Of a DNA stretch of 28,549 nt, positions 1 to 3,186 are shown in pieces. The DNA comes from Escherichia coli (GTDB lineage Bacteria > Pseudomonadota > Gammaproteobacteria > Enterobacterales > Enterobacteriaceae): NCBI RefSeq assembly GCF_003334385.1, contig NZ_QOWN01000056.1, one strand, 5' to 3'. A program made the position numbers and the translations under genes. The notes below the pieces were generated by a model. The model was not told the DNA's origin. It saw only the letters and a program-made list of their open reading frames with translations, and did not search any database. Positions within the stretch are counted from its first letter, which is position 1. Each line of letters begins with the position of its first letter.

Positions 1-77
1 AACGCGAGGCATCGTCTTAACGAGGCACCGAGGCGTCGCATTCTTCAGATGGTTCAACCCTTAAGTTAGCGCTTATG
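1..77. mobile_element. Terminal fragment of an IS186-like (IS4-family) insertion sequence; 23-bp terminal inverted repeat caacccttaagttagcgcttatg at 55..77; the element continues beyond the window start
   Basis: gudD homology stops abruptly at ~78. The sequence 55..77 matches the IS186 terminal inverted repeat as I remember it (CATAAGCGCTAACTTAAGGGTTG on the opposite strand), and 1..54 resembles IS186 sub-terminal sequence. The adjacent flank (acgtttaccccc) is G/C-run rich, as IS186 targets usually are. Recalled, not searched. Confidence 0.65.
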
Positions 78-472
78 ACGTTTACCCCCAGATGCTGCCC
101 CAGCAGATCCAGCATTGCCGCTTCTATCCCGGTAACTACATGAATAGTGGTACGTAGGTCAAATGTCTGCAAACCGCGCCCACCAGCATCACGATCGGCA
201 AAAGTATTACGCACCAGCGTCAGAACGTTTTTGTATTCACCCAGCGTTTTACCTACCACCAGCGGAATCGCATCTTCCAGCGTTTTACGGATTTTCTCGC
301 CGCCGGGAATTTCCCCTACGCCAGTGTGACCAGAATTATCTTTGATAATCACAATATTACGCGTAAAGAACGGTGCGTGTGCACCACTCAGATTCATCAG
401 CATACTGTCATGACCCGCCACCGGGATAACCTGCATTTCAGTAACAACAGGCGTCGTAAATTGAGAACTCAT
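78..472 (-). pseudogene. gudD: gudD, glucarate dehydratase, 5' fragment (about 131 of ~446 codons) truncated by the IS insertion
   Basis: Minus-strand ORF 17..496 contains [58 protein letters not shown] (enolase-superfamily N-terminal domain; ATG at 470..472, RBS aagga upstream). After ...GQHLGVNV the frame runs into IS-derived sequence ([19 protein letters not shown]) and stops at 17..19. Confidence 0.85.
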
Positions 473-492
473 ATTTATGTCCTTTTTCAGAA

Positions 493-1832
493 TCAATGAC
501 GGCCGAAAACGGGACGTTTACGGTCAAAGGTCCAGCCGGGGATCAGGTACTGCATCGGACCTGCGTCGTTACGCGCACCGCCAGGCAGACGTTTATAGGC
601 CTCATGTGCCTTTTGTACCTGTTCCCAGTCCAGTTCCACGCCCAGACCGGGCGCATCAGGAACGGCAATTTTTCCGTTTTTAATCTCCAGCGGATTTTGG
701 GTCAGGCGACAATCGCCCTCCTGCCAAATCCAGTGGGTATCGATAGCGGTAGGATTACCCGGTGCCGCCGCGCCCACATGGGTAAACATCGCCAGAGAGA
801 TATCGAAATGGTTATTAGAATGGCAGCCCCAGGTCAGCCCCCAGTCGTCGCAAAGCTGCGCCACACGGACTGCACCGGAAAGCGTCCAGAAGTGCGGATC
901 GGCAAGTGGAATATCTACCGCATTGAGCATCACCGCATGACCCATTTCGCGCCAGTTGGTGGCGATCATGTTAGTCGCGACGGGCAAGCCGGTCGCCCGT
1001 CGAAATTCCGCCATCACTTCACGTCCGGAGAAGCCCTGTTCTGCGCCGCATGGATCTTCGGCATAGGTAAGAACATCATTCAGCCCTTTGCATAAAGAAA
1101 TGGCTTCATCAAGCAGCCATGCACCGTTGGGATCAACGGTAATCCGCGCATCCGGGAAGCGTTTCTTCAATGCACGAACAGTGTCGATTTCTTGCTCGCC
1201 AGGTAACACGCCGCCCTTAAGTTTGAAATCTTTAAAGCCGTAGCGATCCTGTGAGGCTTCTGCCAGACGCACAACGGCTTCGCTGTTCATTGCTTTCTGA
1301 TGCCGCAACTGATACCACTCATGGTTGCCCGGCGTATTTTCCACATAAGGAAGATCGGTTTTGGTCCGATCACCGATATAAAACAGATAACCGAGGACGG
1401 TAATAGCCTCGCGTTGCTTGCCTGGCCCTAACAGTTCGCAGACCGGAACATTCAGCGCCTTACCTAGCAGGTCAAGCAAAGCGGCTTCCAGCGCCGCCAC
1501 GGCGTTAACGCGTAATTCAAAGGTCCAGGCACCTTTACCGAAGGTATCAAAATCGGCGGCCTGATTACCTTTATGCCCTGCTGGACCACTTTATTCAGTC
1601 GCGCAACTTCCTGGCCCAGAACCATCGGAATAGCATCGACAAGCGTCTGATAAATCACATCTCCGCCCGGCGCTTCACCAATGCCGGTATGCCCGGCGTT
1701 ATCGGTGAGTACCACAATATTGCGGGTGAAATATGCGTTATGTGCCCCACCAATATTAAGCAACATGCTGTCATGCCCGGCCACCGGAATGACTTTCATA
1801 TCAGTAATAACAGGACTGGATTGTGTCGCCAT
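493..1832 (-). pseudogene. gudX: gudX, glucarate dehydratase-related protein, disrupted by a 1-bp frameshift near 1573..1583
   Basis: Two same-strand overlapping ORFs: 1464..1847 (N-terminal part, [31 protein letters not shown]...) and 493..1500 (C-terminal barrel domain, 335 aa). The alternative frame through 1501..1570 reads [28 protein letters not shown], which aligns with the intact gudD N-terminus in this same window. Start ATG 1830..1832 is 1 nt from the gudP stop. Confidence 0.8.
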
Positions 1833-1833
1833 C

Positions 1834-3186
1834 TTATTGCCCCGCAACAGGTTTCAACTCGATACGCTTGATATCGCCCACCAGCACCAGGTAGCTCAGT
1901 ACCGCGATTAAGGCATGAACACCAACATAAATCAGCGCCCCATTAAACGAGCCAGTCGTGCCAACGATATAACCAATTGCGATTGGCGTGACGATGCCAG
2001 AAATGTTACCGAACATGTTGAACAGGCCACCGGAAAGACCGCTGATCTCTTTTGGCGCGGTATCTGCCATTACTGCCCAACCCAGCGCCCCGATGCCCTT
2101 ACCGAAGAAGGCCAGCGCCATAAAGCCGATGATCATCCACTCAACGTTGACGTAGTTGCAGAACACCATCACCATCGACAGCAACATGCCCATTACGATC
2201 GGTGTTTTACGCGCAATGTTCAGCGATCCCGTGCGGCGCATCAGCCAGTCGGAAATAATCCCACCCAGCACACCGCCGATAAAACCGCAAACCGCCGGAA
2301 CGGAAGCCACAAAGCCCGCTTTCAGAATCGACATCCCGCGTGCCTGCACCAGATAAACCGGGAACCAGGTAATAAAGAAGTAAGTCAGGGCGTTGATACA
2401 GTACTGACCGATATAAACGCCGATCATCATCCGTGACCCTAGCAGCTGTTTGATCTGCCCCCACTTCACGCTGAACGGCACTTTAACTTTGGTGTTTTGC
2501 TGATCCATATTGATCAGCGCACCACCCGCGGCGATGTACTCCAGCTCTTTCTTATTTACCCCCGGATGTTGATTTGGCTCGTGGATGACTTTCAACCAGA
2601 TAAAGCTGATGACAATCCCCAGACCGCCCATAAAGAAGAAGACGTGTGACCAGCCCACTTCATGCGTCAGCCAGCCCATAATCGGCGCGAAGATCACCGT
2701 TGCGAAGTATTGAGCGGAGTTAAAAATCGACACCGCCGTTCCCCTTTCCTGCGCCGGAAACCAGGCCGCAACAATGCGACTGTTGCCGGGGAAAGATGGC
2801 GCTTCAGCAAGCCCGACCAGGAAGCGCAGCGTAAACAGGGCAACGATAATGCCGAATCCACTAAAGATATCGACGAAGCCTTGCAGCAAGGTAAACATCG
2901 ACCAGATAAAGATCGACCAGAAGTAGACGCGTTTTGAACCAAAACGGTCCAGCAACCAGCCACCAGGGATCTGCCCGATAACATAAGCCCATGAGAAAGC
3001 AGAGAACACATAGCCCATTCCCACGGGATCAAGGCCGATATCTTTGGCCATTTCCGAACCGGCGATAGAGAGCGTAGCGCGGTCGCCGTAGTTGAAGGAT
3101 GTGACGATAAACAACATCACCACTATCCAGTAACGAGCATTTGTGCGTTTTTCCACACTGCTCGCAGCCTGACTTAAAGAACTCAT
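1834..3186 (-). CDS. gudP: D-glucarate/galactarate MFS transporter GudP (450 aa)
   Basis: Full-length ORF MSSLSQAASSVEKRTNARYWIVVMLFIVTSFNYGDRATLSIAG..., multi-pass hydrophobic MFS pattern; ATG at 3184..3186. Confidence 0.93.
   Translation of the reverse strand: MSSLSQAASSVEKRTNARYWIVVMLFIVTSFNYGDRATLSIAGSEMAKDIGLDPVGMGYVFSAFSWAYVIGQIPGGWLLDRFGSKRVYFWSIFIWSMFTLLQGFVDIFSGFGIIVALFTLRFLVGLAEAPSFPGNSRIVAAWFPAQERGTAVSIFNSAQYFATVIFAPIMGWLTHEVGWSHVFFFMGGLGIVISFIWLKVIHEPNQHPGVNKKELEYIAAGGALINMDQQNTKVKVPFSVKWGQIKQLLGSRMMIGVYIGQYCINALTYFFITWFPVYLVQARGMSILKAGFVASVPAVCGFIGGVLGGIISDWLMRRTGSLNIARKTPIVMGMLLSMVMVFCNYVNVEWMIIGFMALAFFGKGIGALGWAVMADTAPKEISGLSGGLFNMFGNISGIVTPIAIGYIVGTTGSFNGALIYVGVHALIAVLSYLVLVGDIKRIELKPVAGQ

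Follow-up and report, generated by a model that had tools for sequence, protein, structure and literature searches.

Why should an Escherichia coli operon for D-glucarate catabolism carry two broken genes beside an intact transporter gene? This question is raised by a 28,549-nt stretch of E. coli DNA (GCF_003334385.1, contig NZ_QOWN01000056.1), which was analysed whole and is referred to here as the window. The first-pass annotation described gudD as truncated by an insertion sequence (IS), gudX as frameshifted, gudP as full length, and the two lesions as independent events. All four descriptions hold up in the comparisons reported below, in which one lesion is an IS insertion and the other a 1-nt deletion. 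The same annotation interpreted the pair of lesions as a sign of relaxed selection on D-glucarate catabolism in this lineage, through laboratory adaptation or host restriction, or else of adaptive loss, and it is this interpretation that we examine here.

The window looks like one entire short-read contig with a 77-nt repeat at either end: on the left it begins inside a copy of IS186, and on the right it ends in the 77-nt tRNA-Met gene forming the first copy of the metZWV tandem (28473..28549, plus strand). Alignment to K-12 revealed a colinear gene order and a total of 7 SNPs and 1 indel across 28.47 kb, with zero nucleotide differences from position 1578 to 5548. A natural, K-12-like E. coli is the best explanation for the source of such a sequence.

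The gene following gudX and gudP was identified as the ortholog of K-12 gudD from its sequence and from the synteny barA-gudD-gudX-gudP, in which the K-12 order is kept. The window holds the first 395 nt of this gene (nt 1-395; 78..472, minus strand, ATG at 472-470), all identical to K-12, and the IS186 end adjoins it directly after nt 395, within codon 132. What is left corresponds to residues 1-131/132, part of the N-terminal capping domain only, while the MR_MLE_C (Pfam) barrel bearing the catalytic and metal-binding residues (residues 188-405 of K-12 GudD) is wholly missing from the window. The window fits both a simple interruption of gudD by IS186 and loss of the 3' part of the gene in an IS-mediated deletion or rearrangement, because the 3' part would in the former case be located on another contig. 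Reading through the junction is a chimeric ORF of 151 aa (17..472, minus strand, TAA stop at 19-17), composed of 132 GudD-matching and 19 IS186-encoded residues. An exact-sequence look-up of this ORF in a 15-billion-protein collection gave no match, an absence that is weak evidence in itself, since unitig-style assemblies would break earlier inside the IS and yield a different ORF. The nucleotide junction of gudD and IS186 was found in 0 of 5,426 complete E. coli genomes, and an exact 30-nt scan of JGI metagenome contigs was likewise without a match, so the insertion would appear to represent a single event that is private or rare.

Positions 1 to 77 (plus strand) correspond to the right terminal 77 nt of IS186, a member of the IS4 family (PGAP name 'IS4-like element IS421 family'), ending in ...CCCTTAAGTTAGCGCTTATG. 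They are identical over 77/77 nt to the corresponding end in BL21, where the element sits at the lon promoter, and in RM10410, PEC408 and WF5-5-T2; the characteristic terminal inverted repeat of the element (CATAAGCGCTAACTTAAGGGTTG...) is thus present, with 100% identity over 77 nt to annotated copies in four genomes. The gudD sequence begins immediately after the last nucleotide of the element. When the IS186 copies compared are oriented as on the window plus strand, their transposase gene is located upstream of the right end, so that here it would run antisense to the gud genes.

The target itself, ACGTTTACCC/CCAGATGC (78..95, plus strand), whose first ~10 nt would constitute the target-site duplication, is typical of the element. 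The gudD flank ACGTTTACCC/CCAGAT resembles IS186 flanks at lon, at an oxidoreductase gene adjacent to ynfE and at proC, with individual examples reading GGATGTTTCCC/CCACATTC at lon in BL21, GGGTGTATACC/CAGATTTG at proC in WF5-5-T2 and CATTCTACCC/CCAGATCC in PEC408. Megablast matches of other IS186 copies also extend 16-23 nt beyond the IS end, into the gudD flank. A consensus for the IS186 target was reportedly described by SaiSree et al. 2001, and the preferred kind of target, containing a G/C run, is found at gudD. This likeness to other IS186 sites argues for a genuine transposition into gudD. A complete IS186 measures ~1.3 kb, contains a transposase gene and is flanked by a target-site duplication of 10-13 bp; the window takes in 77 nt of the element, and the transposase gene and the other junction would fall on other contigs. 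Simple insertion predicts that the other junction should read ...CAGCAGCGATGCCACGTTTACCC/CATAAGCGCTAACTTAAGGG... on the window plus strand, with ACGTTTACCC(C) duplicated over 10-11 bp and then gudD nt ~386-1341 and barA. In E. coli B/BL21 the copy inserted at the lon promoter has the same terminal 77 nt, a similar flank and a junction exactly at the IS terminus; however, the copy in the window lies inside the coding region of gudD, and lon is a recurrent hot spot, whereas gudD, given its junction count among complete genomes, is not.

The lesion in gudX (493..1832, minus strand; ATG at 1832-1830, normal stop TGA at 495-493) is a deletion of a single nucleotide, the T of GTG in codon 86 (1576..1577, minus strand), which changes CAGGTGCAT to CAGGGCAT relative to K-12 in a non-homopolymer context and leaves the gene at 1340 nt compared with 1341 in K-12. 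In place of an uninterrupted frame of 446 codons, translation meets a premature TAG (1464..1466, minus strand) that ends a 122-aa N-terminal product, so that ~970 nt of gudX mRNA are left untranslated before gudD begins at 472. A second, mechanically called ORF of 335 aa begins with GTG at 1500 and covers GudX residues 112-446. The gene also carries one private synonymous SNP at 1261. The first-pass statement that both glucarate dehydratase paralogs are disrupted is correct in that both genes are broken, but it overstates the standing of GudX, a related protein that in K-12 shares 63% identity with GudD and retains the GudD catalytic residues. GudX is not known to act as a glucarate dehydratase in vivo, as reportedly set out in Hubbard et al. 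1998 and in UniProt Q46915. In the structural record it appears as 'glucarate dehydratase-related protein' (PDB 4IL0 and 4GYP), and in PDB 4GYP it was co-crystallised with GudD.

Unlike the gudD insertion, the gudX deletion is by no means confined to the window. An identical deletion is present in four of the 5,426 complete E. coli genomes (SCU-104, LR-33, KE58 and N18-04097), all isolated from human gut or urine (USA, Ecuador, Canada) and all with gudX annotated by PGAP as 'frameshifted'; these genomes, together with protein records of E. coli KTE14, share with the window both the deletion and its 122-aa and 335-aa products. Yet gudP is intact and gudD full-length (446 aa) in all four complete carriers, with GudD identical to K-12 in three of them, whereas in the window gudD is interrupted as well. 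The exact 122-aa GudX product was further located on 430 contigs of a large assembly collection, with entries in 738 index blocks, and each of the 24 contigs with this allele that were read encodes a 446-aa gudD (24/24). Laboratory adaptation, one of the origins suggested for the lesions, can be set aside: the deletion is absent from the K-12 derivatives checked, including MG1655, C600, J53 and ER1709. Separate gudX lesions were also identified beside an intact gudD, namely IS1203 in WP7-S17-ESBL-04 and IS186 in RM10410. Given that distinct natural lesions of gudX occur with gudD intact, gudX looks individually dispensable. One apparent case of further decay, the NCTC assembly L011, which carries the gudX allele together with a split gudP and a shorter gudX fragment, was rejected: its additional lesions each insert 1 nt into a homopolymer (CCCC, TTTT and AAA), as errors in long-read assemblies typically do.

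The differing distributions of the two lesions suggest that they are of different ages. We infer that the gudX deletion is older than the IS186 insertion in gudD, mainly from the wide distribution of the allele. Comparison of gud loci across related genomes was proposed by the first-pass annotation as a means of dating the lesions, but flanking SNPs did not yield a robust local tree. The 28.5-kb region is almost invariant and its tree nearly star-like, with 2 informative SNPs plus the deletion, and one of the two SNPs, at site 5549, is in conflict with the gudX deletion by the four-gamete test. Among the genomes compared, both informative variants of the window are shared only with SCU-104. 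This genome also shows the collection maximum of 23 matching places, which amount to ~22 IS186 ends; the median is 0.

The same near-invariance bears on the intact transporter gene. The MFS transporter gene gudP (1834..3186, minus strand) encodes the full 450 aa and is identical to K-12 at both the nucleotide and protein level (WP_000097072.1; 450/450 aa), its upstream and promoter region (3187..3620, minus strand) contains no variable site relative to K-12, and the gene shows zero nucleotide differences across all seven genomes compared. Because the 28.5 kb differs from K-12 by only 7 SNPs and 1 indel, however, an intact gudP is uninformative about selection.

Taken together, these findings probably reflect two gud lesions that are mechanistically and historically unrelated, representing ordinary mutational noise in an IS186-carrying lineage, with no selection required. 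The source strain would first have inherited the 1-nt gudX deletion, a low-frequency allele already circulating in human-associated E. coli. IS186 would then have transposed into a preferred target within gudD, separating codons 1-131 from the catalytic barrel, and gudP may be intact simply since the region had almost no time to diverge. Each lesion is in itself unambiguous, but their adjacency is not statistically compelling.

Relaxed selection at the level of the lineage, under which D-glucarate catabolism is unneeded in the niche and decays gene by gene, is unlikely. Two of the three operon genes are indeed broken, and a precedent exists in host-restricted Salmonella, where gudT, ygcY, gudD and garD are pseudogenes in S. 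Paratyphi A and loss-of-function alleles occur in S. Typhi (PMC11077982). There, as in the window, more than one gene is inactivated in an orthologous operon (gudT/gudP, ygcY/gudX, gudD). In Salmonella, however, the transporter and garD are also inactivated, and a host-restricted serovar has become fixed for the lesions (PMC11077982); in the window, by contrast, the transporter gene is unaffected, the gudX lesion is a minor allele of wide distribution, and the gudD lesion, within the complete genomes and metagenome contigs searched, is found in the window only. The gud locus accordingly does not display the clade-shared lesions in several genes, the transporter and gar genes among them, that mark reductive evolution of a pathway of the S. 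Paratyphi A type; the gar and cdaR genes lie outside the window. Further points against a decaying pathway are the persistence of gudD in carriers of the gudX deletion (4/4 complete genomes and 24/24 contigs), the lack of any change whatever in gudP or its promoter, and the attribution of the extra lesions of L011 to a long-read type of error in homopolymers. Carriers are ordinary human gut and urinary isolates from several countries, with no sign of host restriction. Neither the relaxed selection nor the host restriction put forward in the first-pass annotation is therefore borne out: the gudX allele is not specific to the source strain, and its carriers keep gudD.

Decay might instead be coupled within the operon, such that the gudX frameshift lowers GudD function in all carriers, through Rho-dependent polarity or loss of a GudX subunit, leaving gudD effectively neutral and open to IS insertion. 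This is quite improbable. The premature stop at 1466-1464 is indeed a long way upstream of gudD, which starts at 472, and GudD and GudX do co-crystallise (PDB 4GYP), but gudD is full-length in every other carrier examined, and the ORF that starts with GTG at 1500 runs across the premature stop, so that ribosomes might stay on the mRNA. Moreover GlucD is active and crystallises without GudX (1EC7 series). A stronger version, which we regard as very doubtful, would have the frameshift already crippling glucarate use in a sublineage of human-associated E. coli, by polarity or by loss of a GudD-GudX hetero-oligomer, and would make the gudD insertion the second step of an ongoing, stepwise erosion in a lineage whose IS186 population is expanding.

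Adaptive loss, in which inactivation of glucarate dehydration was beneficial in the source environment and was selected, is highly improbable. Selection in the gut can favour IS insertions in operons for sugar acids and sugar alcohols, as in the gat operon, but nothing in the window speaks directly for such a benefit. There is no parallelism, with the junction in 0/5,426 genomes, the recurrent lesions at the locus strike gudX rather than gudD, and the fit of the site to the IS186 target preference explains the location of the insertion without selection, so that the first-pass suggestion of an adaptive origin is not substantiated. Finally, it is barely credible that either lesion, or both, arose as an artefact of assembly or sequencing: although this is a draft contig with 77-nt repeats at both ends and a single visible IS junction, the gudX deletion lies outside a homopolymer and recurs identically in four independently produced complete genomes and on 430 contigs, and the IS junction falls at the terminal base of IS186 beside a sequence resembling other IS186 targets, which a random misjoin would not produce.

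Under the preferred reading of two unrelated lesions, it is reasonable to predict that glucarate dehydratase is lost. Of the two lesions, the gudD insertion is the only one expected to stop dehydration of D-glucarate, and hence growth on it, and by itself it should suffice; galactarate use via GarD, whose gar genes lie outside the window, should be unaffected. The source strain is thus predicted to be unable to grow on D-glucarate but still able to use galactarate. These results leave the understanding of the pathway and of the IS unchanged, and in that respect matter little. They add one more IS186 insertion site consistent with the target preference of the element, and the recurrence of gudX lesions (frameshift, IS1203, IS186) beside an intact gudD lends weak population-genetic support to the view that GudX may be dispensable for the pathway.

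Relative to K-12, gudX (pseudogene at window 493-1832, minus strand) lacks a single T in codon 86, between window positions 1577 and 1576, converting CAG CAG GTG CAT to CAG CAG GGC AT... in a context containing no homopolymer. The frameshift reported in the first-pass annotation is thereby located: translation reaches a premature stop at 1466-1464, giving a product of 122 aa, and a mechanically called ORF beginning with GTG at 1500 corresponds to GudX residues 112-446. When complete E. coli genomes were searched with an 80 nt probe carrying the deletion in its centre, exactly four matched at 100%: SCU-104 (human rectal swab, USA), LR-33 (human faeces, Ecuador), KE58 (human urine, USA) and N18-04097 (human rectum, Canada). 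The remaining 1,466 genomes matched by this short probe fell in a 95-99% band; all of the matches listed, MG1655, C600, J53 and ER1709 among them, had the 98.8% identity that marks the undeleted allele. In all four carriers gudX is labelled ‘frameshifted’ by PGAP, with both gudP and gudD intact; three of the four encode K-12 GudD (WP_000098255.1). Furthermore, the exact 122-aa N-terminal GudX product was identified in 430 contigs from NCBI, ENA, JGI and Logan (e.g. E. coli KTE14) and is listed in 738 index blocks; all 24 of the contigs read with this product possess a 446-aa gudD downstream. The deletion is thus a real, widely distributed, circulating natural allele. In an NCTC assembly with the deletion (GCA_900449675.1, 2646-5342), gudP appears split and gudX further fragmented; additional gud decay was dismissed here, the extra changes being 1-nt insertions in CCCC, TTTT and AAA runs that are probably long-read assembly errors.

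GudX shares 63% identity with GudD and retains the GudD catalytic residues; it is not known to act on glucarate in vivo (UniProt Q46915; Hubbard et al. 1998). Independent natural lesions of three kinds, each accompanied by intact gudD, support the dispensability of GudX: the frameshift, an IS1203 mid-gudX in WP7-S17-ESBL-04 (1916-4569), and an IS186 near the gudX 3' end in RM10410 (3440-4811), gudP also being intact in the latter two. GudX has been co-crystallised with GudD (PDB 4GYP, deposited as ‘glucarate dehydratase-related protein’), and coupling of the gudX frameshift to gudD function, through polarity or hetero-oligomer formation, is possible.

Disruption of gudD by an IS, first annotated as truncation, was confirmed. 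Window 1-77 constitutes the right end of IS186, with 100% identity to copies in BL21 (lon promoter), RM10410, PEC408 and WF5-5-T2 (‘IS4-like element IS421 family’ in PGAP), and its terminus (...GCGCTTATG) directly adjoins, at 77/78, a 395 nt 5' fragment of gudD (472-78, minus strand). The chimeric reading frame comprises 132 residues matching K-12 GudD and then 19 IS-encoded residues, with a stop at 19-17. Since the MR_MLE_C barrel domain of K-12 GudD spans residues 188-405, the catalytic domain does not lie within the window, which is compatible with either simple interruption of gudD or loss of its 3' part. The gudD flank at the IS end (ACGTTTACCC/CCAGATGC) may be set beside those at the same end of the copies in PEC408 (CATTCTACCC/CCAGATCC), BL21 lon (GGATGTTTCCC/CCACATTC) and WF5-5-T2 proC (GGGTGTATACC/CAGATTTG), where both junctions are visible and 10-13-bp duplications were found. 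Because the flanks of IS186 copies resemble one another, megablast matches to other copies also cover 16-23 nt of the gudD sequence adjoining the IS end. Judged by its sequence, the insertion appears genuine: the boundary falls precisely at the IS terminus and the adjoining sequence is a typical target, which speaks against chimeric assembly. An assembly or sequencing artefact is unlikely for both lesions. None of 5,426 complete genomes carried the junction (criterion, a match over 80% or more of window 1-154), nor was it found in JGI metagenome contigs; failure to find the chimeric ORF in a collection of 15 billion proteins is weak evidence.

The transporter was, as first described, full length: gudP (1834-3186) encodes a 450-aa product identical to K-12 GudP, and window 1578-5548, including the gudP promoter region, shows zero nucleotide differences from K-12. 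As gudP is invariant across the seven genomes compared, its intactness is the null expectation. Within the window, then, gudD is cut off from its catalytic domain and gudX is out of frame, with gudP and its promoter unchanged. In the pathway described for Salmonella orthologues, GudP imports D-glucarate, GudD dehydrates it to 5-dehydro-4-deoxy-D-glucarate, and GarL, GarR and GarK perform the downstream steps under the regulator CdaR (PMC11077982). From this knowledge, the gudD lesion alone would be expected to abolish growth on D-glucarate, and galactarate use via GarD should persist, provided that the gar genes, which lie elsewhere in the genome, are intact.

The 28,549-bp window is colinear with MG1655 between gudD and the leading tRNA-Met gene of metZWV (gudD'-gudX-gudP-yqcA-truC-yqcC-csrB-syd-queF-ppnN-sdaCB-xni-fucOA/fucPIKUR-rlmM-ygdD-gcvA-gcvB-ygdI-csdAE-tcdA-mltA-tRNA-Met), from which 78-28549 is separated by 7 SNPs plus a single 1-nt indel. 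Every one of the 5,426 complete E. coli genomes in the collection matched the region, the majority at 95% identity or above. Each end carries a 77-nt repeated sequence, namely the IS186 end (1-77) and tRNA-Met (28473-28549, further tandem copies lying just beyond in metZWV), from which we infer an entire short-read contig broken at repeats; overlaps of this length suggest de Bruijn assembly with k=77. N18-04097 possesses one tRNA-Met beside amiC (239-315) versus three tandem copies in the other compared genomes, reflecting either true copy-number change or a repeat collapsed in assembly. The tcdA-mltA intergenic region also contains an Rfam hit to the ES036 (CssrF) sRNA family (27003-27045, minus strand), scoring above the gathering threshold.

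The two lesions are independent, and this part of the earlier interpretation stood; the selection it proposed is not shown. Two observations contradict relaxed selection on D-glucarate catabolism across the lineage: every other deletion carrier examined retains gudD, and neither the transporter nor its promoter has changed. Adaptive loss finds no support, parallelism being absent at gudD. Roughly a hundred pseudogenes are typical of an E. coli genome of ~4,500 genes, so that a few per cent of genes adjoin a pre-existing pseudogene. By this rough argument from general knowledge, in a lineage gaining at least 10 new IS copies there is a considerable chance that one will fall beside a pseudogene; two events, of which one is a widespread allele passed down by descent, do not justify an inference on selection. 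The case combines ordinary IS186 insertional inactivation with an already annotated gudX pseudogene allele. Its likeness to gud/gar degradation in S. Paratyphi A and S. Typhi is superficial only, as in these host-restricted serovars the transporter and garD are also hit and the lesions are fixed (PMC11077982).

Comparison of gud loci, proposed earlier for dating the lesions, suggests that the deletion is the older, being widespread where the gudD junction was found nowhere else. Almost every variable site of the 28.5-kb alignment is private to a single genome, and three SNPs are private to the window: 1261 (synonymous, gudX), 20174 (synonymous, fucU) and 23707 (gcvA-gcvB intergenic). The last, A versus C in all six comparison genomes, lies in the divergent promoter region, upstream of both genes, ~75 nt from GcvB (23782-23987) and 54 nt from the gcvA start. 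The deletion is common to the window and the four carriers, 15219-A to the window and SCU-104 only, and 5549-A to the window and TUM9754 only; TUM9754 lacks the deletion, a four-gamete conflict implying recombination or recurrent change. SNP 5549 falls in the CsrB RNA (5242-5601, minus strand; CCAGGAUGG to CUAGGAUGG), altering the base directly before a GGA CsrA-binding motif. By these few informative sites, SCU-104 may tentatively be placed as the nearest relative. That genome (NZ_CP053284.1) has 23 IS186-end places including the gud locus, hence ~22 copies, ranking top of the 5,426 complete genomes (median 0; K-12, 3), which points to IS186 expansion in its lineage. If the source strain belongs to this lineage, the IS186 copy in gudD would be one among many recent transpositions.
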